Assembly (NCBI GenBank): GCA_964642385.1
Contig: CAZXON010000001.1
Coordinates: 150,532-214,531, forward strand
Length of the DNA: 64,000 bases
Direction: 5' to 3'
Source of the DNA: an uncultured Candidatus Peribacteria bacterium
GTDB taxonomy: Bacteria; Patescibacteriota; Gracilibacteria; Absconditabacterales; Absconditicoccaceae
The position numbers and the translations under genes are program-made. Below the pieces are notes generated by a model. That model saw only the letters and a program-made list of their open reading frames with translations, made no database searches and was not told the DNA's origin. This document shows, one piece after another, positions 160-51,391 of the stretch; positions within the stretch are counted from its first letter, which is position 1; every line of letters begins with the position of its first letter.

Positions 160-2460
160 TTATTCTTCCTCATTTTCATGGATTAGGTTTACCTCGTTCT
201 CTTTTCAAACCTCATCATAAGCTATTGTTTGGATTCCCTCTGGGACATGTGCTAATTCTTTGAATTTTTTCTTACCCAAGTTCATGTAATCTAAAATCTC
301 CCACAATTTCATCCATCAAATATTTTCCGTATTTGGCATATAAATTCAAATTTTATCAGACCGGTTAGGTAACAAATATGAGTGTTGTTGCTTAGAAAGT
401 CAAAGATTTGAACAAATAAAAAGATTATCTGCAATATATGGGTCATGCAAGTTTTGGGCTATAAGCAAACCTTTTGGTAATTTTGATGTTTTTTGTTTAA
501 CATCCGCATAAAAAATAAATTTACCTTGCTTGATAAAATAATTAATAATTTCAACAATGGTTTTGTCGATATCGACAGAATTTCTTCTATCTCTACACAC
601 GAACTGTGATATGTCTTGCTTGATGCCATTTCAAAAATCAATAATAGAATATTTTTCCCCTTTCCCTGCGACCTGATTCGCCATTTTCTTAAGATGAGTT
701 TCAACCATCCTTGTAATTTGTCTTAGTGGTTTCATGAACATGCTGTTACTCGCTGTATTTATAGCTCTTTCTGCATTCCTAATATTATAATTTGCCAATC
801 ATACATTGTTTTCTAGATCATCAAATTGTAACTCAACTCCTTTTTGTCTAATCTCCCCATCTTGATCTACGTAGTTACAAATTATGTTTTCTTTGAAATC
901 TTTATAAGCACCATTATTTCATCTACTAGATCCCTTAGAAAAATTATCATAATGTTTGCATAGTATGCTCCATTTTTCTGTGTCGGAGTAAACCGTAGGA
1001 TAGTTTGTTTTCATAAGTTGAGTCCATTCTTCTTTTTTGATGTAAGGATTTTCTTTAGGCTGTCTTTTTTGCACTGTTGTTTCTGGCAACAATGTAGAAA
1101 TCGATTTTTGCAGTTCTTCTATTTGATTCTCGTCTAATACTGATTTATTGTCAAATACCACAGATTGAATCATAAATTTTTTCCCTTTAATATCTTGTAA
1201 TAGGTCACTTCAAAAAACATCAGAACTCATATTTACGTTTAATCTTGCCAATCGGTTTTCGCTAATTTCTTTTATGTCGTTAAAATGAGCAGTGTTTGCA
1301 TCTTCTATAGAAACACGAAAACCCATTATATCATTTAGTTTTTTTCCTTCTATAATTTTTTCTATGCATGAAGAAAGTGATTTTAATCTGGCGGTTATGA
1401 TAAAATTATTGCCCGTTTTTTGATTATATGTTTTTACTTCTGTTTTTAGTAACTCAACAGCTTTTTCAAACATTTTCCTGGTAGCAGTACTCCATTGGAA
1501 CGTGGTTGTATCTCTTGAAAGGAAAGCATCTGTATGAAACTCTAAAGATGGGTCTGTGCAAGCCCATAACATATCTGAATATTGTCATGTTTTTTTTGTC
1601 CATTCCGCATCTCAATCTTGTCATCATGTTGAAGATGGATTATGTTTTTTGTGAGAAAGCAGATAACAAAGCACATTCACATATGAGTCAAAAGATTTTA
1701 TTTCATCACTACCAATAAAAGGGAAATCTCCATCGTGAAAAACTTGATTTAGATCACCTCCTCGCTCTTTCCAAACGGTGTTTACGTTGCTAAAAATAGC
1801 CGATATATACTTAAGCGATTTTTGGGATATTGAAACTGTTTCTTTTCAATCTATTTCAACTAGATCAAACGCCTCGTTTCCCAATCTTTCTTGTAATATT
1901 TTTGCGACTTTTGAAATAACATTAAATTTTTCAAGAGAGATATCATCTTTGCTGTTTTTGTGTTCCTTGTGATATCCTCTCAAAAATTTTTCATAAAAAA
2001 GGTGGCTTCTTAGATATTCTATATTTGGTTTGCGTAAATATTCATCAAAAAAATGATTAATTCACTCCTTATATTTTATAAGAATAGTATCATCTGTAAT
2101 ATTCCTTTCAAGGAGATCAAAAAGTTGGTTTTTGACATTGTTTTCATTATATTCGACAGTCGCTCTTTTTATATTTGCTGGATTTGCCAAATACTTATCA
2201 TTTTCCTCTCTCATAAGTTCTCTAATTTTGAATTTTTTGGTGATAGATAATCCTCTGGAAGTCGCTTCTCTTGCCTTATGTATCCTATTTAAAAGCAAGA
2301 GTTCATTTAATGTACATTTAATCTCTTTTTCGAGTTTTCCATATTGTTTTTTTTCTTTTTCTGTGTGTAATATTAGATTGCTTTTATCAGAAAAATTCGA
2401 TTCTTGTGATCAAGGAGCGTCATGTAAGTGGTTTTTTATATTTTTTGGAAGATGGGACAC
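160..2460 (-). CDS. large (~765 aa) protein with a split RelA/SpoT-like nucleotidyltransferase core; no HD hydrolase, TGS or ACT region recognised
   Basis: Track fragments 400-600, 919-1173, 1210-1572 and 2062-2298 share one frame and are separated only by TGA. Hand translation with TGA=Gly is open from ~2550 down to TAA 160-162. Motifs ITARLKSLSSCIEKIIEGKKLNDIMGFRVSIED and GAYKDFKENIICNY..GVELQFDD resemble RSH synthetase strands. There is no in-frame ATG at the 5' end (candidates GTG 2458-2460 or TTG 2518-2520), so the start is uncertain. Confidence 0.55.
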
Positions 2461-2635: not shown

Positions 2636-4672
2636 ATGTCATCACTACTCAACCAATATTTTGATACAAACTATACAAACGCCATAAAACAGGGCTGATT
2701 TCCAGAGTATGTTTTACCCAAAACAAATACTCCAACCGGCGAAAAATGATTTTTTAATGAATTTTTTTGATGGATTTTTGGTACAGTAAAAAAGGATAAT
2801 AAGAAGGATGAATTCAATCCAGAACAAGAAAAAACAGATGCAGAGAAATCTAATATTTCACTACAAGAACAACTCAGAGAAATTGTTCGCATACCAGATA
2901 AGGACTATTCGGACAAGATGCTCAGCTCTTCAATGAGAGCATATATACAAGGGGTTGAAAAGGAATATATCGCTTCTCTGTGAGATTATAAATCACACAT
3001 CGCGCCAAGTTATTGGGAAGTCAAAGGGAACATTGCAAACATTTCTGGTCTATATGGCAAAACATACTACGCTGAAAACTACCCTTCTTACATGGAAGCT
3101 CTCTGGACTAGAGACCTTTTTGGGTTTTATAGTAAGTGGGATATGACATGGTTTATTTATCCAGAAGACGACGCATCTATTCAATCAGTTCTAAAAAGAC
3201 GTGCGACACAACTTAAAGCTGAATTGAATGATCTAACAGCAAAAGGAATAACAGTAGATACAGACGTACAGCTAGAATATCGTGACGTGGAAGAGATTAG
3301 ACAAAAACTTGCTACTCGTGAAGAAAGATATTTTGAAGTGTCTCATTATTTTTCTCTCTATACGCCTGAGGAAAAAAAGATGGATGAGGAAGGGAAAAAG
3401 TATGAACAAAAGGCTTCTTGATATGGAATGAGAGTAAAACCAGCCACGCAACGTATGGATGAAGGGATAAAAAGTTGCACACCATTAGGGATTGATGACC
3501 TATGAATCACTAGAAGCATGGTAACCACCTCTCTAGCAGGAGCATTTCCTTTTATCGCAAACGATTTAATTGAACAAACTGGAATTCTGTATGGAATCAA
3601 CCAACAAACCTGATCACTTATTATTTTTGATAGATTTTCAGGTAAACTTCCGAATGCAAATAGTATCGTACTTGCAACATCAGGTGCAGGTAAATCATTT
3701 ACTGTAAAACTAGAAATCCTCAGATATCTATTGCTTGGAATTCCTACGATTGTAATCGATCCGGAGAACGAATACAAAGCGCTTTGTGACAAAGTAGGCG
3801 GTACGTATGTAAATATCGCAATGAACTCTTCGCAATATATAAACCCTTTTGATCTACCTCCGAAATTAGAAGACTCAGAATACTGACCTTGAGACCTATT
3901 AAGATCACAAATTGCAAGTTTAATCTGAATGATTTCAGTGCTAATCAACGGTTTGAATGCTGAAGAAGAAGCACTTCTGGATAAGGCATTACAATCAACG
4001 TATGCTTTGAAAGAGATCACTCTTGATCGCTCTGACTACTCTGACAAAAAACCACCATTGATGGAAGATCTAATAAATGTACTTGAAGGTATGGAATGAG
4101 GCAATCTCCTTGCGGTAAAATTAAGCAAATATTCTAGCGGAACATTTTGAAAACTCTTTAACAACCCGACAAACGTTAATCTAGATAGTCCTCTAACTGT
4201 TTTTAGTATAAGAGATATTGAAGAATCTCTAAAAACACCAGCGATGTACAACGTTCTTAATTATATCTGGGCAATGATTAGATCCAGAAAACAAAAAAGA
4301 TTGCTTGTGGTAGATGAGGCATGGATTATGATGAAAAACGAAATATCAGCCAGCTTTTTATTCGGTATGATAAAAAGAGCAAGGAAATATGGGCTCGGCA
4401 TCAGTACTATTTCACAAGACATTGAAGATTTCGCGAATTCCAACTATGGTAAACCGATTATTTCCAACTCAGCAACACAAATTTTGCTTAAACAATCAAC
4501 CGCTTCTATCAAAACATTAGATCAACTCATAGGGCTATCAGACGCAGAAAAAGAACGTCTTATATCAGCGTGAATTGGGGAAGGACTACTGTTTGCAGGG
4601 AGCCATCATATTGGAGCAAAGATTATCGCTTCAGCATATGAAAAAGAATTTATCACTACAAATGTAAAATAA
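2636..4672 (+). CDS. virB4: VirB4/TrbE-family type IV secretion/conjugation ATPase (678 aa)
   Basis: ATG 2636. Track pieces 3092-3421 and 4244-4573 are in the same frame and join across TGA. Walker A LATSGAGKSFT, Walker B RLLVVDEAW, STISQD. TAA 4670-4672 overlaps the next ATG. Confidence 0.85.
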
Positions 4673-5052
4673 TGAGTCCAGAAAATCAAAATAGTATGAT
4701 TGAGACCAAACAGTTGGTGGCTCTTGCCTCGGTGTTGTTTCTTGCTCCAGCGATAAAACCAACATTGGAAGCAAACAATATTACCTTTTCGGAACAAGAC
4801 AAACCTTTTATAGAAAGCTATCTTCAATATGGTAATTATCTATTGTATGCTCTTGGCGGTAGTCTATTCATGTTGCTACTAGGCAAGTATGTATTTCAAA
4901 ATAAAATTTTTGTTGATATCTCACAAGCAGTTGCTGCTTTTGTAATAATTGCTGTTTTGCTCGGTATCTTCGCAATCTTTCGCAAAAAACAAATAATTAT
5001 TGATAAAAAAATAACACGAAACAACATCATGTCACTTGTAGAAAAAAAATAA
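4672..5052 (+). CDS. small polytopic membrane protein (126 aa), function unknown
   Basis: Intact ORF in the track, translationally coupled to the VirB4 stop (TAATG). Three hydrophobic helices. No TGA codons. Confidence 0.6.
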   Translation: MSPENQNSMIETKQLVALASVLFLAPAIKPTLEANNITFSEQDKPFIESYLQYGNYLLYALGGSLFMLLLGKYVFQNKIFVDISQAVAAFVIIAVLLGIFAIFRKKQIIIDKKITRNNIMSLVEKK

Positions 5053-5080: not shown

Positions 5081-6028
5081 ATGAAAAAAACAATCATTAC
5101 TCTTCTGGGAATCATAGCATTTGGAAGCATTTGACTACCAACTTTTGCGGTTAGTACATGATATCTAGAGGCACTTGATCTAAGCACATCATGATTAGAC
5201 AACACGCCCGTACAAACAACTTATGATTGAGCTGAGGAAGGTGGTAGAAGTGCTGTTACCAAGGTTATCATATCAGTGCTTACGAAGATACTTCTTCCTC
5301 TAATGATTTTCTTTGGTATTGCTCAGGCGATGTTTGGGTTTTATAGTATTATGACATCAACAAGCGACGATGCAAAAAAGAAAGGAATGAACTATATTAT
5401 ATGGGGTGTAGTAGGAATTATATTAATCAGCTCCGCAAGTTTCCTTGCATATACGCTCTATGGTTGAGCTGGTGGATGATGAATATTTAGAGACAATAAT
5501 TGATTGACACTTTCTTGACCGGAGATTGCTAGTAATCTGTACAGCAAAATGATATTCCCATTTGTTAGATTTTTGATGTATTTTATAATGGGCTTGTTGT
5601 TTGTTATCGCACTGGTGCGCGCAATCAATTTACTTTTAAGCAATAAAGACGAATGAGCGAAACAAGCAGGCGCCATCCTTAAGCGAAACGCATTTGGTCT
5701 TCTCGTTATCATTTTTTCAAAAGCTCTGATTGAGGCTGTTTATGGAAAAGAAGAAGAGGTGGTAAATTTATATGCTACAACACTTTCTTCTATATGATGA
5801 GGTGTGGATAAAAACGTTCCTTTCGTATTCACAATTATAAACTATTTAATGTGATTTATAGGGATTTTTCTCCTTGTGATGATTATCATTCAGGCAGTAC
5901 AAATACTGACAAAACCTACTGACGAAGCAATGCAAAAGAAACTGAGAAAAAATATTATTTATATTTTGATATGATTGGTTGTTATGTGACTTTCATATGT
6001 AATCACAAATGTGTTTATCGTCAGATAA
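5081..6028 (+). CDS. membrane protein made of three tandem VirB2/TrbC-pilin-like two-helix modules (315 aa)
   Basis: ATG 5081 with signal peptide MKKTIITLLGIIAFGS. Track piece 5276-5467 is in frame. Three repeats follow the pattern hydrophobic helix, short polar loop (..TSTSDDAKKKG.. / ..SNKDEGAKQAG.. / ..TKPTDEAMQKL..), hydrophobic helix. TAA 6026-6028. Confidence 0.6.
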
Positions 6029-7570: not shown

Positions 7571-8557
7571 ATGCCTATGACAATAAATATGTTCCTATTC
7601 TTAGCAATTTTTTTTGTACTAGGCTTGATCTTTGGATCGTTTGGCTCGGTTATTTCTAGCAGACTTGCGGATTTTTCGTTTAGCGACATTTTTGGAAGTG
7701 CAGAAAACAAAGCACACAAAAAACGGAAAGAAGCGATACAAACAATTCTTCGATGACGCTCTCAGTGTCCTAGCTGCAAACACACACTTCACACAAAAGA
7801 TCTAATCCCCTTGGTTAGCTATATAAGCACAGGAGGAAAATGTCGCTACTGTAAGAAAAAAATATCGCCAATATATGTTTGGCGAGAAATTGGATGTGGG
7901 TTACTATTTGTGGTGTTGGGTGGATTGGTTCTATCTCAAACCTGAGGTGTTTCACTCACAATTTGTATTTTGTGGTTATTACTTATTCGAACATCATATT
8001 TGTTGTTGATACATGACGTAGAAACGATGAACCTCCACGAACCATTGCGACTTCTAACCGCATTGCTTTCAGCGCTCTTTGTAGCAAATCTGCCTGGATC
8101 ATTTTTCTGACAAACCAATGCCGTAGCATGATTTGGTGGCCGATATTATGCGCTCGTTTTTGGATTAGTATTTTTAGGGTTTTTTCTCGCTTTCTACTGG
8201 TTCGCGAGATGGTATGTTGCGCGAAGATTGAAACGCGACAACGTATCATTATGATTTGATGGAGAATGATTTGGTTCTGGCGATGTATGGGTTGCACCTC
8301 TTTTGGGGATACAATTTGGCGCTCGAGAGTACTTTTTACAAGTTCAGTCAATTACGAATCTAGAAGGATTCTCACGAGTATTGGCAATAGAACATTTCAG
8401 TTACTATATCATCCTAGCTGGCGTATTGTGTCTCATATACGCAGGTTTACAAAAGCTCTATAAACCTAGTAAATCCATACGTCAATTGCCATTTTTTGCA
8501 GGCATGATAACTGCTATTTGGGCGATAATGATTTTGACACACACCTGAATGATATAA
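7571..8557 (+). CDS. pilD: prepilin peptidase (A24 family, PilD/ComC-like)
   Basis: Track ORFs 7571-7756 and 8303-8548 join across TGA. Zinc-ribbon region GRSQCPSCKHTL..LIPLVSYISTGGKCRYCKKKISPIY. Second catalytic region ..GFGSGDVWVAPLLG. TAA 8555-8557. Confidence 0.85.
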
Positions 8558-11037: not shown

Positions 11038-13227
11038 CTACACCAACAACTCTCCTTCTATCTTTTCCATCTGAGCGGCTAACCCATCTAGTCATTCCAA
11101 TCAAGGATATTTTTCCAAAATCGAAATAGCTGTCTGCTGGATTTGTTCCAAAAATTTTGTATTTGCCATCATCTCATACGGTATATCAGTAATACCACTT
11201 TGGCGTGTTCCAAGGAACTCTCAGGCACCACGATACTGCAAGTCAAGCTCCGCAAGTTTGAAACCATCGGAATACTGCTCCATCGCACGCAAACGTTTGT
11301 AAGCATCGCCTGATTTATGTTTGGTTTCCAAAAAACAATATGATTGCACATCACTTCTTCCTACACGACCACGTAATTGATGCAATTGCGCCAAACCAAA
11401 TCTGTCAGCGTTTTTGATAATCATTATGGTCGCTTCTGGCACATCAATTCCCACCTCGATTACAGTAGTCGACACCAAAATCATATACTCACCTGATTTA
11501 AATTTTCTCATAACTTCTTGTTTTTCAGCAGGTTTCAATTTACCATGGAGCAATCAAATTTTTCATTCTAACTCTTTGTACAACTCTACCGTCTCTGCAT
11601 ATTCTTGTTTTGCGGATTTCAGTTCATGCATGATCTCACTCTCATCTATCAATGGTGTGACGATAAACAATCTCTGATTCTGTGATAATTTGGTAAGCAC
11701 TCGTTGTTTGAGCTTTTTAAATTCGCTCTCAGAGATAATTTTGGTGGTAATTACTTTCCTTCCCGCTGGCATTTCATCAATCGTACTGACATCAAACTCC
11801 CCGAAAAATGCTAATGCCATAGAACGAGGAATCGGCGTCGCTGTCATTTGTAAAATATGTGGTGAACCAAACTTCTTGAAAAATGCTCTTTGACGCACAC
11901 CAAATTTATGCTGTTCATCTATCACAACCAAAAATAGCTTGTGAAAATCAATACTATCTTGCAACAATGCATGGGTGCCTATTATAACGTCTATTGTTCA
12001 TTGCACCAATGCTATTTTGATTTTTTTCTTTTCTGCTGTTGGCGTAGAACCAGTAATACAAGCCACGCGAATACCTAAAGGAAGAAGTATTTTTGCAATG
12101 CTCGCGTAATGTTGCTGTGCAAGCACTTCAAGCGGCGCAAGAAATGCGACTTGTCAACCAAATTTCTTGATAACATAATACGCGGCAATCGCTGCGACAA
12201 CTGTTTTTCCACTTCCAACATCTCCTTGTAACAAACGCAACATTGGCTTGGTCTCATGGAGATTTTCTACAACTGCTTTGATAGATTTTTTTTGGGCTTT
12301 TGTCAGTTCAAAAGGTATCACATCAAGCATCTCTTTGACGACATCTCGATCCAATTCCTGTTTATGAAAAGTATGTCACTTCTGGTAGGAGTATTTTTGG
12401 ATCAATGAAGCAAGTTGCACAGTGAGAAGCGAATCAAAAGAGATACGATAGCGAGCTTCTTTTGCCTCTTCCATTGAATCAGGATAATGCATATTTTTGA
12501 CAGCAGTTGGATAGTCCATCAAAGCATTATCTTTTAAGATTTCGCTCGGTAGAAATTCACTAAATAAAGTTGGTATATGATGAAGGTTTTCTCGAATTTT
12601 TTTGGCGAACCATCAGGACCTAATTCATTGCATCTCCGAATAGACAGGATAGATGCGATTGACTTGGTACGATTCCTCTTGTTTTATCTCTTGTACACGA
12701 GCATCTGCAAGTGCTTTTTCATCCGAAATATCTGTTTTTTTCACTTTTTCTACGATCGCGCCACCTTCAAAAATCAACTCCTCTTCTTGCGCTTCATCAT
12801 TTTCTTCCTCGAGTATCTGTGTGGTATCTTCGGTGAGGATCATCTCTGGATGCCAAAACGACACCTTTCATTTGTCATTTTTCGGTTTTCAAATAACAAG
12901 ATACCGTTGGTGTACTCTGATATGAGCCAACAAAAAAGGCGCAAAGAAAAAATTCACTGTCGCTTTTTGCTCAGTTTCATCATGCGTTTGAAAGACAATT
13001 ATTTTTTTCCCTTTCCCAGTTCTAATAACACTCATTGAATCTATAAACAGTTTGACCGTATATTGTACTTGTTCACTTTGGATATCTTGTAGTAAAACAA
13101 TATTTTTTCTATCCTCATAGGTTCTAGGAAAATTCAGAAAAAAATCACGAATCGTAGTGATTCAATTGGTTGCAAGTAATTGCAAATATTTTGGCGTAGT
13201 TCTAAGATATTTTTTCAAATCCTCCAT
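11038..13227 (-). CDS. recG: ATP-dependent DNA helicase RecG (729 aa)
   Basis: Track pieces 11221-11553, 11563-11967, 12154-12354 and 12625-12864 are co-framed. Motifs GDVGSGKT, VIDEQHKFGV, MTATPIPR, LHGKLKPAEK and LHQLRGRVGR. ATG at 13227, TAG at 11038-11040. Confidence 0.92.
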
Positions 13228-13670
13228 ACTCTAGGTGTATCTTTTCAGACGCAGAAAAAAAGAGATTTATTCCAGATAGATACAGGGAGAAAATTGTTGA
13301 ATAAAATATTTAGGTGTAAACCGACGCCTTAAACAACGCCTGAACCTCGTACGATGTCCGATGGATATCGTTACAGGCTCTGTTAGGCGATTAGTCTCCT
13401 TTTTGTTTGTGAATTTTAGATACAGACCTTTCATTTCTATTCGTTCGCTTCTGTAGTTCCCAGAAACTTTTTTTGGTGGGTTTAGATTTGATTTGGGGAT
13501 AGAATTCATCTATTCATTTTTCATTAGGCTGTTTTTTAAGTTCCATTATCCCAGATATTTGTTTTTTAATGTTTTAAAATCAACTTTATACCAAACTTTA
13601 TTTTTTTATAAAACCAATATTCAAAATCTTTTACATCAAATCATTCTCTTAAATAACAGGAGAGCAAGAT

Positions 13671-13892
13671 TTAAATTTTTTGAATAGACGAAGTTTGTTC
13701 TGCTTCTAAAATCTTTTTTTTATTCATAATGACAATTAAATCTTTTTCATAAATATCAAGATATTTTTTATATTCAGGATTATTTACTTCTATCTTGGTC
13801 ATAGCATCTCATACTATGTTGACTCCTTCTACTTTGTCTTCAGACCTAATCGGTACTAGTAGGCTTCCGTCTTGTAATTTAGATATGTACAT
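13671..13892 (-). CDS. small hypothetical protein (73 aa) immediately downstream of the giant peptidase-domain gene
   Basis: ATG at 13892, one internal TGA, TAA at 13671-13673. Lies 37 nt after the giant gene's stop. Confidence 0.5.
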
Positions 13893-13929
13893 TTTGTTTC
13901 TTTAAAAGAATAAAACTATTTATCTTATA

Positions 13930-16900
13930 TTATTCTATATTAGCTTTGATATAATCTGTAAATTCCTGGTCATATATTTTAGTGAATTTTTTCTCTCAAT
14001 ATTTGTAAAATTGAGCTATAGATTCTGCTCGAAATTCTTGGCATCATGCATATCATCAAGGGCCATTTTGTTGAAAATAAGAGGTTAGATTGTTATAAAA
14101 TCTTTTATGAAATTCTTTAAATTTTGGGGAATTTGTAATATTAAAAATATTATCTATTGAATGTCATAATTCATGTAGGACAAGTGATTTACTACCATGT
14201 CTTCCTTCTCATGAATACACTCTATTTCATTTACTCGCTCAAGCAACACTATCTCGAGTATTTCATTTATCCCATCAACGTGGCTGGACTCATTTAAACT
14301 TTATGTTATCTTCTCGTCCAGTAAATGTTTGGTTTGATAAAAATATTACAATTTCACTTTTTCATATTTTTTTAAGGGTTTTATCTGATAATAAATTTAA
14401 GTCATCAAGATGCTCTTTCACTATTTTTTGCTCAAAGTTTCTAATGACCAAATTTTCTGAAATTACTCAAAGTCTAGGATATTCTATTATCACATCTTTT
14501 ATGGTTGATTGATCCTTTAATCATTCTACAAAGAGACTTCTTTTCTCAGATAAACCAAGATCATGTCATGGGATTTCTTTTTTCAAAAAAACTTTTTTTT
14601 CTAATCGCTTATTGTATATTTCTTTTTTTATCGACCTGCTTTCTTTTATCAAATCTTTATTTGACTTGTCAAAAATTAATTGACTTTCAATATCTTTTAT
14701 TTTTTTTTGAAGTATTATTATTTCTTCATTAATTTGTCTTATTTTTCTTTCTAATTCAGCATCTTTTAAAGCATTTTTCAAAGCATTACTTTTCAACTCC
14801 AATAACTTAATACTATTTTGATAATCAATTTCACTTATATTTAATTTTTTAAATCAAATTGGATTAATTTTCGGGTCATTTGCTTTCAGATGACTGAGCA
14901 TATCATCTACAGGTAACTTGGCATGAAATCATCATGACACCATGAAAAATACTGTTGCCATCATTCATCATGCTCTGATCATTTGCAAAATATCTACGTT
15001 TTCTTGTTTATCAAACAATTCATTTACTCACATTTGTCTTACTCATTCTGCTGTTGCTCATACGGTTACATCAAGAAGATTAATTCATAAATTGGAAGTT
15101 ATATATTTTACATCATTGAAAAATCAAGGACTTTTTTGGATAATTGGTCAAAAAACTTTCATACCAAGAAATGCCGTTGCTGTATCAAACACAAATTGAC
15201 TTGATATATCTACTGCTCACTCTGCGAAACTGTTATAATCCATTTTCTTATAAAGCATTTGTGTCAATATTCATTGCGTTACTCAAACAGCTATTGCTGA
15301 TGTTGTAACACTAGCAAGTGTCATTACTCATGCTGCACCAGCTGGCGGGAAAATCATCATAGATATCATTGTTCATCATAGCATAGCTCACATTTTTAAT
15401 CATTCTTTGATATATCAAGTATACTTCATAATCTCATCATCCACTTCATCAGATAATTGTCCTGCCCAAAAACTATTGACTGCAAAATCTCTATATAAAT
15501 TTAAAATTTCTGTGTCTGCTCATTGTAATCAGTATTCTTGTGCTGATTTTGCATAACTACTTAAATTATCCTTTCCCGCTTTCTTTATTTCTCCTTTAAA
15601 CTTCTTTTTTTGAGTTTCAAATTTTACTTGTTGCATTTTTGCTTCCTTTGTTCACAAGTTTTTCAGTTCTTGAATATATTTAGCTTCAAACGGAACTTGT
15701 TTAAGGTCAGATTTTATTTTTTCAGAGATTTTTTTGAGTACAATAGTCCTTGCTTGTAATGTTGGTGATAATTGGGATATTTTTGTTTTTTCATCGACAG
15801 ATATAAGATCTAAAATCCCAAATTCTCATGATAGTGGTCGTGGTATGTTTTGACTAACTTCCGCTATAAAACTTTCACATTTTTTATTTTTTAGAGTTGG
15901 TTCATCTTGCAATACATCTACTGGACTAATTTTATCTATTGTTCCGTTTATTTGCATCAAATTTTCTAAAATTTCTTTTGCTAATTCTGGATTATTAAAC
16001 TTTTTATCATTGTCTTTTTGCTTCATTCTACCTGCACCTGTGCTATTGAATCTTCAAGTTAAAATGTTACATAACTTTATTAAGCTCTTTTTTGCTGTTT
16101 CTGGGTTCGTTTGTAGTTCTCCAAATCATTTTGCTTGTGCAAGTAGATAACAAGTATTTATAATTTCAATTCTCATACCTTCTTGATTGTCTACTGCTAT
16201 TTTTAGTTCACTTCATTCTATTTTCTTTCAAGTTTTATTTGATCGTTTTTCATCTCATAAAGAACAATGAAACTTCCATACATAATTTATTACCTGAGTT
16301 GAATTGATGCTTGGATTACTAAAGACATTTTCGATAATTTTTTGTATTTTTTCTTTTTCGTTGTAGGTCATTTCTTTGATGTTATCGTTATATAGTATTC
16401 AATTTGGCACAGAAGTAAGTTCATCTAAAACACTAATTGTATTTTTGTTTTTCAATTCTTCTAATTTTTTAGATAAAGGTCTCGTAGTTATTTCTCTATT
16501 TTCTGTATGTTGTATTAATTTTTGTAAGGGGTTGTGTTTTTTTGCATTTTCTATTTGTTGAGGTATTTGCAATTGTTCACCATTCAATCGTTTTATATCT
16601 GGATGATTCATATTTATTGGTCAAGCAGGGTAGCTTATATCTTTCCCTTTGCTTTTATTGAAATTAAACATATTTCATTTGAATCATTTTTTGAATTCAT
16701 TCCATCAATCTTGTCATAATCCATACCAGATTCCTTTTGATTTCATATACTTTTCAGCCATTTTCTGATTTGTTGTTTTTTCTCGATCTCCACTTCTATT
16801 TGCATTCATACCATAACTCATGAAGTATAGTTTTACTATCTTCATTTCATTTACAGATAATGATTGCTTATTCAAAAGATCTTTTTTTTGTATATTCTCA

Positions 16901-17079
16901 AAAATTGGTTTTTGTAATAAAGTCAAAAAATGCTGATCTTTCGCTTCTAGTCATTCACTGATTTTTTTATAATCTATCTGATCTAATTTACCAAAATTAT
17001 CATTAAACTCTTTCTCAGAGATAACTCATTTTTGATTGTCAGTATCGAGTCTTGTTTTGATGGTATTGATGTCACTCAT
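13930..17079 (-). CDS. giant protein (1049 aa): N-terminal unknown region, Gly-rich membrane-helix region, coiled coil, C-terminal anthrax-LF/PPEP-like (ATLF) HExxH zinc peptidase domain
   Basis: Track pieces 14566-14802, 15826-16026, 16399-16611 and 16714-16926 share the frame of ATG 17079 and TAA 13930-13932. Codon-by-codon checks at 14161-14220 and 15181-15420. C-terminus reads ..KGVQPRGWDKGNTRDSVAGASKGNRVYSGEGRHGSKSLVLHELGHSIDN...EFRAESIAQFY. Dozens of TGA (Gly) codons. Confidence 0.75.
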
Positions 17080-17093
17080 GTAGTAATTTATTA

Positions 17094-17366
17094 TTAAATT
17101 TGTTCTAATATATCATCAATGTTCTTTATTTTTTCATTTTCTTCTTGTCCTTTAATTTTTTTAATTTTTTCTTTTATTAGTGTAAACTTCTGCTTACTTT
17201 TTTCAGTTGTTTGTTTTTTAACTTCATTTTCTATTAGTTTGATAATTCAATCTATAATATTATCATCTAATTCTGTTTCTTCTAATAACGCCAAAATCCC
17301 ATCAGCAAGAGATCGATATTCTTTTAGTTTTTCCAAGATTTTTATGAGATATTCTTTTTTTGTCAT
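17094..17366 (-). CDS. small acidic coiled-coil protein (90 aa), first gene of the giant-protein module
   Basis: ATG at 17366 (MTKKEYLIKILEKLKEY..), one TGA, TAA at 17094-17096, 14 nt before the giant gene's ATG. Confidence 0.5.
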
Positions 17367-17884
17367 ATAAATGTACAAATTTATAAAAAGTATGCATATA
17401 AATTATATTCAAAAGCTTATTATAACAAAAAAAATCTACTCTAAAGATAGAAGATCGTTTTGACATTTTGTTTTTTTGTTGTTTTTTTTGCTTATTTTTG
17501 AAAAAGAAGATTGCTCGATTTAAAAAAAACCTCACCATAATTGCCTCGAGGATGTGAAAAAAGTTTCTGTGTCTTGAATAAGGATATGACAAAAAGGAGA
17601 TTTTGCCTAATGACTGAATTGAGATGATGTGCGCAAGGGCTGATGCTTTGAACAAATTAATCAGCGCTAGGAGTTGCATCTCTTTTGGTATTCCAATTTT
17701 TTTCTTTTCTTGGATGAAATTATATAGGTTGAGATTCTCTTTCCTTTGTTTCGGCTCATTTATTGTTCATTTTTAGCTCAAGGGTTTGTCTAATTGTTTC
17801 ATAGAGAAAAATTTCCCTCAATTTGCTTCGGAGAGACAAAAAAAATATTTATTTTTTAAAAGAATGGAAAAAACCATATGTTGC

Positions 17885-17999: not shown

Positions 18000-18557
18000 T
18001 TACTTGTGACTATAGAAATAAATTGTAGATCAAGTTTTCTCGTTGTGAATTTCTTTATCGGTTTTCCAATTAGAAAATGAAAACGTATTGCACACTATGA
18101 TAGCAGAATTTTTCATGTTTTTTTGTAGCCAATCTTGAATTTTGTCGAGGTGTTCTGGCAAGAGAAAAAGATAAATATAATCATATGAAGAAATATCTAT
18201 AGATTGCATATCTCAATAGATCAAATCAATCGAGTGGATTCCAAATAATTTGTTTTTTATTTTCCCCAAAAATATTGCCATACGATTGTTGTCTACTCAT
18301 ACAAGGGTGGAGAATGCATAATGTTTGTGTAAAAACCTCAATACTCAGCCACCTCCACATCACAAATCAATAAGCGACGTACCTGGTTCAAAATATATAT
18401 TTTGTTTGATAAGTTGAAAATGACGAGCATAGCTTCCAACTGTTGGTGCTTCATGATTGTGATAATGTTTATATTCAGCCCGAAGATACATTCACAAAAA
18501 AATCATAATGCTTATGCAAACGATCATACCAAAGATAGTGGCTACAAACTCTATCAT
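18000..18557 (-). CDS. class I SAM-dependent methyltransferase with N-terminal TM helix (185 aa)
   Basis: ATG at 18557. SAM motif I SLIDLGCGGGGVLRFL (two of the Gly are TGA). TAA at 18000-18002. Confidence 0.7.
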
Positions 18558-24784: not shown

Positions 24785-25279
24785 CTATATTATCTCTTTA
24801 TATAACTCCTTCAAAGATACCATTTTTTTACAAAGGATTGACTTGAGCTTTGGGTTATTCTCTATTTTTTTGAGAAAATCTTTCATTACAGCATCGGTTT
24901 CTCTTCACTCGCCACCTCAAGCATATCCAACAAAAGTCCTAGAAGCCCCATTTCCATACTTAAGAATATAATATCTCCGAGATGTATTCCAAGCTGGAGT
25001 TATATAACGGTCAATTTCTGTCGGCAAAACAGTTCTTTGTTTTTTAGATAATTCTGTATCATGTACAAGATTGATAACGAGGATTTCTTTAAGTTGATTG
25101 ATAGTCTTTCATTGACTTTCTGCCAGATTAATTTTCTGCATTTCTTGATCAACTAGGGATTGTGCAATTTGCTCACCTCCCATTCATGATCGCTGTGGAT
25201 CATTAAAATGTTCATGTGGCCATGCAGGAATCTCGTCTGCTAATTTCTTATTCTTTTTGTGTTGGTTCTCCGATGGCAT
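24785..25279 (-). CDS. hypothetical protein (164 aa), overlaps the 3' end of the upstream giant gene by 32 nt
   Basis: ATG at 25279 (MPSENQHKKNKK..), several TGA codons, TAG at 24785-24787. Confidence 0.5.
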
Positions 25280-28200
25280 CTTTTTTGAAAAATATGTTAT
25301 AAAAAACATCAACAAAATATCATATTTGTCTTACGTAAAGCATAATTGCAATAAGAATAACCCAGAAATCATAATTGTTAGATCTGTAATAAGGATATGG
25401 TGCACTACCTGCAGATACGTTAAAGCTTCTTTGTTGGTCAGTAAAGACAGTATTGGAGCGTTCTCAAACATTGTTATTTTGGTTAATAGGAGGAGCTGAA
25501 TCTCGCCTTGTAGCGCCCATCTCTACTCAATTAGTCTGGGAACGAGCTGAAACTTTCATCATAACACCTGGCTCCATTATATCTTCCGAGCTATTTGTGA
25601 AGGTATTTCTTGTAGGCGTGCTTTGTGTTACATCTTTAGAGTCATTATTTGAATATGTCGAATCATATTTGTTTTTTTGATTTTCATATCTTTCTAAATC
25701 TCTATACTGTTGAACAGTTTCAAGCGCTATCATACTATTGAACTGATTAACTATTTTGTGTTGCTTAGCAATTTTTGATTGGCTAAGAGCTACAGTTATC
25801 CAGTCATTTGTGTTTTCAACTCATCCCAATAGCTGGTTTCAAACATATCATGCTATGATTTTTTGTATTCCAGTATTTGTTGTTTGGGTTTTTTCTCAAA
25901 TATTTATTACTCAACCTGTTATCTGAGCATCTGACATAAATTTTTCTAAGCCCAAATCAAGAATAATTTTTTTGAATTCTGTCTTATCGTCTGGAGACAA
26001 AATACTATCTTGAGCCAAAAGCACATCTATATCTTCTTCTTCCAATGCACAGATCTCCATATATACAGGTTCATTCTCAAAAACATTTTCTAAGACAGAT
26101 TGAGCATTATTCAATTTTACATTATACGTATAGATATTTCATTTGGTTGCCGAAATAAGATTTGTGAAATCTGATTTATAGGTTTTTATATCATCGCCAA
26201 TCTTAATAACATCAATTTGATTGGAAAGTAGCAATTGAAAATTTCTATTTTTATTCTCCTCTACGGTCATATTAAAATTATCGTCATCAGTAAGAATTAT
26301 TATCCTTTGATTTGTTATGTTGTTTTTTTCAATAAAATCAACAATAGTATCAACATCGGAATATCCTCGGAATTTTAAATCATCGATAGAAGATATTTTT
26401 TCTACAGCGAAATTATATGTATACAAATCAACATCTTGGATTTTTCAACCATAATTTTTTATTGTGTCAAACAATCTTTGATATCAAGCGAGTGTGTTGT
26501 TTCTTTTCGCACTCATTGAATTATCAAAGAATAGTGCAATTTTGTTTTTTTCTGTTTGTGCTGGAGAAAGGATGCTTTTTAATCATTTTGGCAAAGCCAA
26601 ATTCCACTTATAAGAATTTTTTGATCATTCATATATAGGATAATTTTCTAGTAAACCACTAATAGTGCCTCTTCTTTTATTTGTAAGTTCATCATATATA
26701 GGATAATTTTCAAGCATACCATTGGTAGAGATGAATCTTCTATTTCCTAATTCATCATTATTGTTGCGAATAAGTCATTTAATTTCCAAATTAGCTATCA
26801 TGCTTATCGGTATACAGTAGTCAGACAAATTTTTTGCAACAGAATCTTCTAAAATATTCGTTGGTAAGAGATGATCAGAATCCAGATATATTGCAACTTC
26901 ATTTGATTTCGCTATGTCTTCTTTCAATAATGCATTGTTTTTATAGATCTTTGAAAGTAGTGTTGTCTCCTTTTCAACCTTTAGATTCGTCATTGAAATT
27001 TGTGGCGAATAGACAATTTTTGTTCACTTTTGCAATGGTGTTTGTATCGTCAACTGCACCAATTGCCTTCCTTGTGTCTTTGTGTCTTTCTTAGATAAAA
27101 TTGGGAAAACACTAAGAGAATACGTTTTTAAACCTACTTTTTGAATCAATGCTGGATCTCTATTTATTCTCAAACTATCTGCATAAACTTGCGCAGCAGC
27201 GCCACGAGAAGCTATTATGCCTTGCAATTCTCAGTATAATCACAACTTCAAATCAGAAACCACACTATACAAACTTGGTGTTTCAAAATTTATTTTAACT
27301 TCTTGATTTGTGGTTGTTGTGTTTGTAAAGTGGAATTTGTAAGTTGTTTCCATCACATCCATCTCTCCTCCTGTTGATATGATATTGTTCGTTACTTCTG
27401 CCAACTTTAGAATTACTTGGGCATTTTTTCATACTTTGGTTGCATTTGTGCCCATTGAGTTTCTAGTTGAAATGTTGACTAGTTTTTCTCCAAAATAATT
27501 TTCTGGCGTAGCATCAAAAATCTTTGTAAAATATCATGCCGAATTTAGATTTTTTGTTTCATTAAAATAATTCAAATACGCCTTTCCCAAAAAAATAGTT
27601 TCTGCTTTTTTGAATGTGGTGTAATTCAATCATCAATTTTCTATAATCCTGCTTGACCTTGTGATTTGTCAGTCCAAAAATCTATTATAAAACGCTGGTA
27701 CAAAAGTAGTTATTACAAACATTGCCACAAAAGCCAATACACCTGTCCAGATTTTTTTGTGATTTCTTTCTGATGCATTAAAATATGCTTTTAATGAAAA
27801 CAAAGGATAGGCAAATAGAACTAGTATAAATATCAAAGATAAAGCTGATAGGAAAAAACTGTCACCATCAGCATACCACTGTGACCAAAAACTCGGATAT
27901 ACAAAAACATAAATTGTTCAAACAATACTTAAGATAAAATAATATCACAAATTATATGTACAAAAAATATTTTTTATTTTTTCTAACCATCAGTAACTTT
28001 GTAGTTTGGTCCGAACAGTTTGAAGTGTATCAATAAGTGGATAGATTAATAAAGCGCCAAATCCTACCAAATAGATCCAAGTTCAACCATCTCATAAAAG
28101 TTTTGCTAACAACTCTCTTAATCGTCCATATCCAATATTTGAAAACCCACCGAACCCCTCTATTATTAGAGTAGAGATTGAAAGCGATATGACTATAGCT

Positions 28201-28541
28201 GGAATATAAATCAAATGTGAGTTAGCAAGAAAATTTTCTTGTGTTTTACGAGCTTTAAATTTTCTTATCAGAGAAACAATGAGTAATAAAGAAAATAGCA
28301 CAACAATTAGAGACATAACAAAGACTAGTATTCACTGAGTACTAAACGAACTTATACCAATACTACCTCTTCAAAAATCAGAAATAAAAAAGGACAATGT
28401 TGTCCTAAGACCAAAATAAGATAGAAAAATTAAAAACAAAAACAAAAGAACAAAAGTTGTATAGTCTGAAAATCATGATTTCTTTGAAGTCTGTCTCCTT
28501 GCCTTTAGTGTCTGGAAAAACGCGATGAAAAAATCTAGCAT
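25248..28541 (-). CDS. 1097-aa surface protein: N-terminal polytopic membrane domain, central vWA-like region, C-terminal TM anchor
   Basis: Six track pieces (25527-25733, 25911-26114, 26139-26426, 26775-26993, 27024-27227, 28092-28316) share the frame of ATG 28541 and TAA 25248-25250. vWA-like segment ..DVDTIVDFIEKNNITNQRIIILTDDDNFN... The tail ..YDFWVILIAIMLYVRQ.. is hydrophobic followed by basic residues. Confidence 0.7.
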
Positions 28542-35865: not shown

Positions 35866-37725
35866 ATGTCTCGCATACAAAAATTCTTTTCACAACGAAG
35901 TGCTTCACTAGGACAATTTCCTATCGCTCACGTCTTGTTAGCGTTTTTGACTACATTAGTCATCACCAATATTTATATCGGATACGACAATGCGTTTGAA
36001 GCAGAATCAAATAGACTTATGATTGCATCGTTTTTTGCACTGTCGCTCACGCTGATACCTGGTGTTTTGCAATGAATCATGAAAAAAAACATCGCAAAAC
36101 CCATGAATTCATGACACACTATTGCAAATGAATGAGATCCAGTACCAATACCTAACCCAAAAAAACCTGCTGCAATATCAGCGGCTTTTCTATTACAGAT
36201 ATGTGGACTGGCAGTAGGTTTTTTATATTACACTCTCTTGCCAAATAATTTTGAAAACAGTCCTTATGCAAGTCGAGTTTGGATGATAGGAAGCATAATT
36301 CTTGGATATCTACTAATATTTTTTAGTATTGCTCGGACCAAAAAAAGCAATGAGGCATTTACCTGGACGCGGCGAAAAGGGATAATAGAATCAGTTCTTA
36401 TTGGTTGAATTGCAGGGGCAATTATCTGGGGAGGTGTTTCTGCGTGTATCAAATCAATAGAGTTTTTATTCAACGTTGAATTTTCTTCAGGAAATATTTA
36501 TGAGTATGTGGGAACCGTTTCAATGATTTTTATAACAGGTTCTATTGCGCTATTATACTTCACCAATCAAGAAAATGAGATGCCTGTATATACACGTCTT
36601 AATCGTATATTTTGACAATATATTTTTCTTCCTTTAACGATCGTCTACTGACTAATTCTAATAAGCTATGGTGTGAAAATCTTGCTTACCTGAATACGAC
36701 CAACATGAACAGTGATTTATATGGTTATGGGATATATCGCTTTTGGGCTGCTTACTCGATTAACCACATACCCAGCGCTTCCCAATTCATTTATTAGTAG
36801 ATCCCATTTCATTTTATTTGGTAGTTTCGTGCTAACTTCTTTGCTTATGATTCCAGCAATTCAAATGAGGATAGACCAATATGGGTGGACGATTGACAGA
36901 TATTTTATTTGTGCAATCATTGTTCGGATTATACTCTTTAGTATTGGGGGGATGTTGTTCAGCAAACACAGGATGATAATCATCATATCGCTTCTGATTG
37001 TGTTGTGAGGATTTAGTGTATATTGAGGAAAATGGAATGCTAGTAGTATGAGTGCGAATAGTCAAAAAAATAAATTATTAACAGTGTTACATGAATACAA
37101 CATTTCTCTTCCGCTTAATTCTTGATCAATTAGCAATCTAGGATATGAACAAAAAGAAACATTACTTAGTTCACTACAATATCTCACAAATTCAGTTGAT
37201 ACAAGCCGATTAGAAGGAATTTTAACACAAAAAGATCTCATCGAAATAAGAAACGCTGAAACGAGTTGGGAGAGAGAATGAATCATGTGTAAAGCAATCG
37301 GATTGTCATCATGCTACGAGATGAAAAACGCAGATCGGAACAGATGATATTTTAATTATTTTATTAAACAAAGACCAGCATCGATCGACGTAAATGGCTA
37401 TTTAACACTTCATAACTTTAATTGTGTGAATTTAAATAACAGTGTAAAAATTGGCGATATCTCATTTGATTTTACTCCATATATGTCTGGAATTTATTTG
37501 CATGCCAACACACAAAAAAATAACAATATTCAACCTATGGTAACAAAAATGGATAGTTCAACCCAAATTTCCGAAGAAGATAAAACCAATAATAATGTAT
37601 ATACAATTGAAACAGATACTATAAAATTATACCTGTACGAAATGGGATGAAGACAAAACCAAAATGAAGATAATTCTATCTCTTACAAAATAGAATATTG
37701 TGACGGCATTGCGCTTGTTAAATAA
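35866..37725 (+). CDS. large polytopic membrane protein (619 aa), possibly DUF4153-like
   Basis: Track pieces 35866-36075, 36712-37008 and 37426-37650 are co-framed. At least 10 hydrophobic helices followed by a soluble C-terminal third. TAA 37723-37725. Confidence 0.6.
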
Positions 37726-51304: not shown

Positions 51305-51391
51305 TGGTGCCTGAAGGGGGAATCGAACCCCCACTCCCTTGCAGGAACCAGATTTTGAGTCTAGCGCGTCTACCAGTTCCGCCATCCAGGC
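51305..51391 (-). tRNA. tRNA-Leu (anticodon CAA), class II with long variable arm, CCA encoded
   Basis: Minus-strand sequence is GCCTGGA-TG-GCGG..-CTAGA-CTCAAAA-TCTGG-TTCCTGCAAGGGAGT-GGGGG-TTCGATT-CCCCC-TTCAGGC-ACCA. All four stems pair, and the anticodon loop is C-U-CAA-A-A. Confidence 0.9.

Follow-up and report, generated by a model that had tools for sequence, protein, structure and literature searches.

What is the function of a 1049-aa protein whose gene is invisible to standard annotation, and what are the two tiny open reading frames (ORFs) on either side of it? The question is raised by positions 13671-17366 of a 64,000-nt stretch of DNA (the whole stretch analysed, hereafter the window) from an uncultured bacterium with a Gracilibacteria-type genome. 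Three genes lie here, all on the minus strand: one for a 90-aa protein (the helper), one for the 1049-aa protein (the carrier) and a small downstream gene of 73 aa, which together appear to be one transcription unit. The module is hidden from standard annotation because the organism reads TGA as glycine. Our analysis suggests, with a probability of roughly 65%, that the locus is a polymorphic toxin module with helper-assisted delivery of an exchangeable C-terminal toxin. A previous sequence-only reading had described the giant protein with a C-terminal peptidase; the polymorphic family, the fixed junction, the 3′ arm, the displaced relic and the wider set of helper-marked giants go beyond it.

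Translation under code 25 gave, for the carrier frame, 1050 codons including 52 TGA, 0 TAG and one terminal TAA. The uninterrupted ORF at 13930-17079 (minus strand) claimed earlier was thus reproduced on recomputation, and the chance of a TAA/TAG-free run of this length is P ~4e-35 at the base composition of the region. In-frame TGA is present in every gene of the window. In GlyA (serine hydroxymethyltransferase), the TGA sites match invariant Gly residues (EGYPxARYYGx versus EGYPGRRYYGG, and FPxLQxxP versus FPGIQGGP), and because of this alignment the genome was assigned to code 25 and not code 4. The tRNA-Gly(UCA) expected for TGA decoding was not found in the window, where the sole tRNA is tRNA-Leu(CAA) at 51305-51391 (minus strand). 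Glycine is written as TGA in 69% of the Gly codons of the carrier gene, compared with 39% pooled over 14 other genes, and in 19 of the 21 Gly codons of the carrier's hydrophobic core. The low-GC setting between recG and a methyltransferase gene also proved correct, with a GC content of 27-30% across 13-18 kb and 34-39% in the flanks, as did the gaps of 14 nt between helper and carrier and 37 nt between carrier and 73-aa ORF.

A protein search with the carrier found the carrier itself in mistranslated form (P0001) and, beyond it, 13 relatives with ~65-77% identity confined to the first ~74% of the query. None of these 13 relatives matched the ATLF domain found at the C-terminus of the carrier. 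The relatives run parallel as far as ...NISEIDYQNSIKLLELKSNALK, and then diverge completely. For six loci re-translated with code 25, identity per position was 0.8-0.9 as far as aa ~765 and no better than chance beyond it. The alternative C-termini included RelA_SpoT in the L006 allele (29.5 bits, cutoff 27), Zeta_toxin after reversion of Trp to Gly (46.6 bits, cutoff 22.3), a second unrelated HExxH type, a weak kinase-like type (L005), and two without assignment. Judged by its sequence, the carrier gene is an allele within a polymorphic toxin family.

The boundary of the exchanged segment could be placed on the DNA. By blastn, homology stops at 14772-14786 (codon ~766-769) in all five loci compared, and no match between loci was found across the C-terminus and the downstream gene. 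The last conserved residues form the motif IDYQNSIKLLELKSNALK. The sequence-only reading had placed a long coiled coil after the hydrophobic region. Long helices are indeed predicted at aa ~750-834, but the linker that they form lies past the recombination junction and for this reason belongs to the variable cassette. In an AlphaFold2 (AF2) model of the database copy P0001, which carries Trp at all 52 TGA sites, helices 750-803 and 808-834 are the sole part with a predicted local distance difference test (pLDDT) score of 70-78.

On the other side of the module, blastn homology among loci starts at ~17603-17611, ~245 nt upstream of the helper. This non-coding 5′ arm contains a −35/−10-like pair ~35-60 nt before the helper start codon, which is kept in a seven-locus alignment with the divergent L002 included. 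The variable cassette is closed by a 3′ arm that is 79-91% identical in L003, L004, L005, L006 and L007, occurs nowhere else in the window or the loci, and is single-copy in the window. Within it, a hairpin at 13342-13380 keeps its pairing through 5 compensatory changes in L003. Rfam gave no match on 12.8-18.8 kb, the 3′ arm included. The arm may act as an RNA element or as a terminator or stability signal, or may simply be a 3′ recombination arm. A 23-nt copy of the hairpin was also seen upstream of the module in L005 (positions 20-42).

Between the 73-aa gene and the 3′ element lies a short segment with 90% identity by blastn to L005 3392-3513, inside the C-terminal coding region of that locus. 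A blastx search gave two high-scoring segment pairs in different frames against aa 944-977 of the L005 protein. By these matches, the segment is what remains, in decayed form, of a displaced cassette. The window's own contigs and locus L005 belong to one sample series.

The variable cassette of the window itself ends in a putative zinc peptidase. Pfam PF07737 (ATLF) matched aa 876-1029 with 52.9 bits (cutoff 27.4), covering profile positions 13-174 of 193. A phmmer search against the sequences in the PDB matched PPEP-1/Zmp1, a Pro-Pro endopeptidase (PPEP) of C. difficile, at E 1.5e-8 with ~140 residues aligned, and a PHROG peptidase matched at E 6e-9. The alignment with PPEP-1 keeps the KGVxPRGW and HExxH motifs, the catalytic Tyr, and the AES-motif Glu that serves as third zinc ligand. 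The catalytic set of the carrier (H969, E970, H973, Y1010, E1019) is intact; in this alignment, Y1010 and E1019 pair with Tyr178 and Glu185 of PPEP-1. The C-terminal motifs quoted earlier, HELGH and FRAESIAQFY, were located at aa 969-973 and 1016-1025, and the assignment to the ATLF-type zincins made with them holds at the sequence level. The domain is most like PPEP-1/Zmp1 and anthrax lethal factor (PF07737, MEROPS M34). It differs from them in forming the tip of a 1049-aa carrier, and not an AB-toxin subunit or an enzyme secreted on its own, and in its His-to-Glu spacing of 46 residues compared with 39 in PPEP-1.

A word-index protein search with the C-terminal domain alone returned no match. 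The database proteins P0001-P0015 are stored with TGA as Trp (code 4) instead of Gly. This translation led to the loss of Pfam labels, RelA_SpoT and Zeta_toxin being unlabelled in the database copies until these were re-translated, and defeated both word-index searches and structure prediction. The AF2 model of P0001, built from a 12-sequence alignment, had a mean pLDDT of 45.7 and a predicted template modelling (pTM) score of 0.31.

The constant part of the carrier consists of an N-terminal body followed by a hydrophobic core. The ratio of nonsynonymous to synonymous substitution rates (dN/dS) of the body is 0.15-0.22. An exhaustive HMMER search found only 6 relatives of the body among 1.84 billion representative proteins, and the family is carried by one GTDB genome, labelled Candidatus Gracilibacteria. 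There was no match to the body in Pfam, NCBIfam, PHROGs or PADLOC, and a family profile gave nothing credible against the PDB sequences. Among the PDB matches to the body and helper profiles, DNA polymerase I was rejected, as the match (E 0.006) spans one helix pair only.

The small-residue and Gly-rich hydrophobic segments reported earlier for the middle of the protein were recovered at aa ~563-609, 629-647 and 697-718, with hydropathy windows of 1.3-1.66. The core contains 3 strict GxxxG and ~10 small-xxx-small motifs, and matches no Pfam glycine-zipper family. No signal peptide-like segment was found at the N-terminus of the carrier, and hydrophobic windows begin only at aa 563. We infer that the core is closer in character to the membrane-inserting hairpins of translocation domains than to ordinary membrane anchors.

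In every locus of the family, 14-15 nt separate the helper from the large gene downstream of it, and the dN/dS of the helper (0.16-0.20) is near that of the body. Length alone is no proof for ORFs of this size, since 76% of shuffles of the region hold an ORF of at least 73 aa. The earlier description of an acidic coiled-coil ORF stands as regards a real, conserved gene, present in all related loci; with an isoelectric point of 5.6, the protein is just mildly acidic. No match to the helper was found in Pfam, NCBIfam, PHROGs or PADLOC, and nothing credible among the PDB sequences with the family profile.

Helper homologs with 42-49% identity also occur directly upstream of other giant proteins; over all contigs, each TGA-recoded, the partners are of 1000-2300 aa. 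A metagenome scan with the helper alignment gave 9 loci, all TGA-recoded, and in 8 of the 9, which are all those whose contig extends far enough, a giant ORF follows the helper directly. The complete giants among them are of 1754-2267 aa; several others are cut by contig ends. The helper-linked giants have a related short N-terminus, central Gly/Ala-rich hydrophobic clusters in all cases, and mosaic exchange of their C-terminal regions. Comparison of the hydrophobic-core profile with the cores of the other giants by hhalign gave a probability of 12%. The contig of L009 carries a 38%-identical relative. Two full sets of helper, giant and downstream gene (78/1331/186 aa and 94/1647/253 aa) are arranged in tandem at L009 2671-13740, beside ribosomal protein genes, suggesting arrays of such modules in some genomes. 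Both small upstream proteins of L009 are 42-43% identical to the 90-aa helper, and the 1331-aa body has no BLAST-detectable relation to the body of the window.

Two further observations concern these giants. A motif at aa ~10-30, D-x-N-x-N/D-x-x-I-S/D-x-x-E-L...A-L-x-x-G, is common to the N-termini of helper-linked giants (L013 7280-, L015 7263-, L017 465-; window 17005-17049). It resembles a single EF-hand; the Pfam EF-hand models scored 12-18 bits (cutoff 25.4) in three giants, with no match in the window protein. In L012 (5203-6345) and L013 (3652-4821), related secreted-looking proteins of ~380 aa (MK...C(Q/E)E..FTVTAYYSP..SGQ.FYYK) are encoded upstream of the helper-giant module, on contigs that are otherwise different.

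The gene downstream of the carrier provides further evidence for a toxin cassette. In L006, the gene after the RelA_SpoT allele encodes an HD_4 protein of 327 aa (50.3 bits), a member of a hydrolase family that would undo the action of an alarmone synthetase. In two cases, a shared C-terminus is accompanied by a shared downstream protein across different bodies. The C-termini of the 1331-aa giant of L009 and of the L015 giant match at E 2e-19, and their downstream proteins (186 aa in L009) are 39% identical (E 4e-28). Likewise, the C-termini of the 1647-aa giant of L009 and of the L013 giant match at E 5e-37, and their downstream proteins of 253 and 248 aa are 27.5% identical (E 1e-8). In the sister loci, these sequence comparisons indicate that the downstream gene co-varies with the C-terminus, as expected of toxin-immunity cassettes.

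By its position, the 73-aa ORF of the window is probably the corresponding antidote or immunity gene. The three recorded contigs of the 73-aa protein are the same locus in sister samples, and nothing was found for it in NCBIfam, PHROGs or PADLOC. Of the chaperone-effector-immunity layout proposed in the sequence-only reading, the general scheme is upheld by the conserved helper and by the co-varying downstream gene in sister loci, and what falls short is the 73-aa ORF as immunity protein, an orphan of chance-compatible length, along with delivery and membrane insertion. Likewise, of the two flanking small ORFs, the helper accompanies the giant in every related locus and the 73-aa ORF does not.

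Table 1. Features of the toxin module and its surroundings, in window positions
Feature	Position	Strand	Remarks
Polymorphic toxin (carrier) gene, putative	13930..17079	-	1049 aa under code 25; 52 TGA = Gly codons
Helper gene, 90 aa	17094..17366	-	invariant core YR-LA-GILAL-E; predicted chaperone or targeting factor
ORF of 73 aa in immunity-gene position	13671..13892	-	same strand, 37 nt past toxin stop; candidate peptidase inhibitor
Conserved N-terminal body, predicted alpha-helical	15430..17079	-	aa 1-550; ~80-90% identity across six loci
Gly/Ala/Ser/Thr-rich hydrophobic core	14920..15414	-	aa 556-720; invariant MIFPPAG turn; predicted membrane-insertion hairpins
Junction motif	14776..14829	-	aa 751-768; last conserved residues before variable cassette
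Cassette-specific long helical (coiled-coil-like) linker	14578..14772	-	aa 770-834; heptad scan
Putative ATLF/PPEP-type zinc metallopeptidase domain	13993..14454	-	aa 876-1029; PF07737, phmmer and PHROG matches
HELGH motif	14161-14175	-	aa 969-973
Tyr1010	within 14044-14058	-	peptidase domain
Glu1019	within 14005-14034	-	peptidase domain
Conserved non-coding 5′ arm	17367..17610	-	upstream of helper gene
Promoter-like pair TTGTTA, 17-nt spacer, TATAAT	17402-17428	-	within 5′ arm
Conserved 3′ arm, ~150-165 nt	13329..13493	-	closes variable cassette
Apparent frameshifted relic of displaced L005-type C-terminus (weak kinase-like)	13558..13677	-	blastn and blastx
recG	11038-13227		flanks module on one side
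S-adenosylmethionine (SAM) methyltransferase gene	18000-18557		flanks module on other side

Elsewhere in the window, a gene at 2636-4672 (plus strand), ~9 kb from the module, encodes a VirB4/TraG-type ATPase (PF19044, 93 bits). It is followed on the same strand by a 126-aa ORF without known function (4672-5052), a multi-transmembrane protein with two T4SS_pilin stretches (5081-6028) and a prepilin peptidase (7571-8557). A second large gene in low-GC DNA, at 25248-28541 (minus strand), encodes 1097 aa with 30 TGA codons and a multi-transmembrane N-terminus; its VIT domain scored exactly at the Pfam cutoff of 26.5 bits, and no helper homolog precedes it. The large ORFs at 160-2214 (minus strand, 684 aa) and 35866-37725 (plus strand, 619 aa, multi-transmembrane) had no Pfam match at E <= 0.01.

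How might such a module act? The helper would keep the carrier export-competent, or target it for Sec-independent export. On contact with another bacterium, either a competitor or the host of an epibiotic lineage, the hydrophobic hairpins would insert into the target membrane, and the C-terminal enzyme would cross into the target cell and cleave target proteins. The 73-aa downstream protein would protect the producer. Strains may diversify by swapping the toxin and immunity cassette through homologous recombination between the constant 5′ part and the 3′ element. That the scaffold reaches a cytoplasm is argued because sister alleles carry the cytoplasm-acting RelA_SpoT and Zeta_toxin with signal-less antidotes.

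Several observations weigh against this polymorphic toxin reading. None of the trafficking and secretion domains LXG, WXG100, PAAR, TPS/FHA (two-partner secretion/filamentous haemagglutinin), MuF and Rhs was detected in Pfam or NCBIfam, and no secretion apparatus recurs beside the modules, whose neighbors are housekeeping genes only. The genes of the window that resemble a type IV secretion system (T4SS) are a candidate exporter by proximity only. The core segments are just moderately hydrophobic and could be buried helices, and their even number (roughly four) is compatible with an intracellular, membrane-anchored protein. The Trp-substituted AF2 model of P0001 was unusable, with pLDDT <50 over aa 834-1049. 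The 73-aa protein had no homolog beyond itself in a word-index search of 5.8 billion clusters, the length of its ORF is within chance for the local composition, and its own AF2 model is poor (pLDDT 63.7, pTM 0.33). Finally, known PPEPs act extracellularly on surface adhesins, for which translocation would be unneeded.

The absence of a signal peptide, a detectable secretion domain and a linked apparatus also fits an intracellular toxin-antitoxin or abortive-infection module, in which a membrane-associated sensor or scaffold bears a swappable suicide effector checked by the downstream antitoxin, and nothing is exported. This is the main alternative, and we consider it unlikely. Zeta toxins and RelA_SpoT-type enzymes occur in the toxin-antitoxin systems epsilon/zeta and toxSAS, so that Zeta toxin and the pair of RelA_SpoT and HD hydrolase are also classic toxin-antitoxin partners, and defence systems likewise shuffle effector domains on constant sensors. 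However, no PADLOC model of anti-phage defence matches any of the three proteins, tandem module arrays also fit toxin arsenals, and the 770-aa constant region, dedicated helper, fixed junction, 3′ arm and displaced relics together are the signature of polymorphic toxins (PMC3482391).

The orphan status and chance-compatible length of the 73-aa ORF would also suit a self-anchored surface protease, held in the producer's membrane and, in the manner of PPEP-1, cleaving extracellular proteins where the cells attach, namely adhesins of the producer or of its host, with the 73-aa ORF irrelevant or non-coding. The nearest relatives with a solved structure are secreted PPEPs, which cleave surface adhesins (PMC11460543, PMC12828418), and giant surface proteins are typical of the lineage (PMC8080830). 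Against this stand the same scaffold bearing RelA_SpoT and Zeta_toxin, which have cytoplasmic substrates and matching cytoplasmic antidotes, and the lack of a signal peptide to export either the 560-aa N-terminus or the C-terminus; we regard a surface protease as quite improbable. A structural protein of a prophage or mobile element, such as a tape-measure or ejection protein tipped with a lytic peptidase, would account for the low-GC island, the large helical protein with hydrophobic Gly-rich segments and C-terminal peptidase, and the PHROG match. That match is limited to the peptidase domain, no phage or integrase genes lie nearby, the neighbors at other loci are housekeeping genes, and 2.9 million viral contigs contain no member of the helper family. 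A phage origin is thus very improbable, and was rejected for the peptidase-only PHROGs match, the lack of the helper in viral contigs and the phage-free chromosomal contexts.

The polymorphic toxin reading, if true, would bear on the biology of Gracilibacteria and their relatives, which are uncultured ultra-small bacteria thought to live on, or prey on, other bacteria, and whose modes of attack are largely unknown. The module would represent a modular arsenal, in which one carrier bears many warheads (protease, alarmone synthetase, zeta kinase and others). The helper family could serve as a simple marker for a census of such weapons in recoded genomes, which would make the question of delivery experimentally approachable. 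In a bolder and rather doubtful extension, the 90-aa helper and the short N-terminal motif of the giants may define an unrecognised delivery route specific to TGA-recoded candidate-phyla bacteria, by which self-translocating Gly-rich membrane hairpins would enter the cells of hosts or rivals and interchangeable enzymes would be injected, with no use of canonical toxin secretion systems.

The module satisfies the definition that Zhang et al. gave in 2012 for polymorphic toxin systems, with RelA/SpoT and lethal-factor-like peptidases among the listed toxin domains (PMC3482391). It shares with these systems a constant part that spans the N-terminus and the centre and continues into hypervariable C-terminal toxin domains, an immunity gene directly downstream that changes with the toxin (here seen in the sister loci), and cassette recombination that leaves displaced remnants. 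It differs in having no detectable catalogued trafficking domain. Its constant region and its 90-aa helper also belong to families without annotation, which our searches met only in TGA-recoded sequences of the Gracilibacteria type.

In the type VI secretion system (T6SS), prePAAR effectors and their Eag chaperones (Tse6-EagT6-Tsi6; Tas1) show the order small chaperone, effector, immunity. Marginally hydrophobic transmembrane helices of these effectors are thought to enter the target membrane and to carry a C-terminal, cytoplasm-acting toxin across, and the toxin of Tas1 is a RelA/SpoT-type enzyme. The module resembles them in gene order, in its hydrophobic segments and in the RelA/SpoT-type toxin of one sister allele. 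In contrast, it has no PAAR/prePAAR domain and no DUF1795 chaperone match in Pfam, its hydrophobic segments are central and not N-terminal, and no T6SS is known or seen.

Small helical helper genes directly upstream also characterise the LXG toxins of the type VIIb secretion system (T7SSb) with their Lap helpers, and EsxE/EsxF-CpnT-IFT of M. tuberculosis. Further likenesses are a large Sec-independent toxin, a polymorphic C-terminus and putative downstream immunity; CpnT features a membrane-active N-terminal domain. The differences are a single helper as opposed to two or three, the absence from the window of an EssC/EccC-type ATPase, and the lack of LXG (PF04740) and WXG100 (PF06013) matches: Pfam gave none for LXG on the carrier at E <= 1, nor for WXG100, DUF3130 or DUF3958 on the helper at E <= 0.1.

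With CdiA/CdiI, the module has in common a sharp junction motif before the variable C-terminus, ...LLELKSNALK here taking the role of VENN, as well as putative linked immunity and, downstream, C-terminal fragments that are orphans or relics; it differs in having no signal peptide, TPS/FHA repeats or CdiB partner. No description of a helper-toxin-immunity cassette system in this lineage was found in the literature searched. As we read it, the module thus employs a familiar polymorphic-toxin strategy with a carrier and a helper not described before, in a candidate-phyla lineage with a recoded genome.

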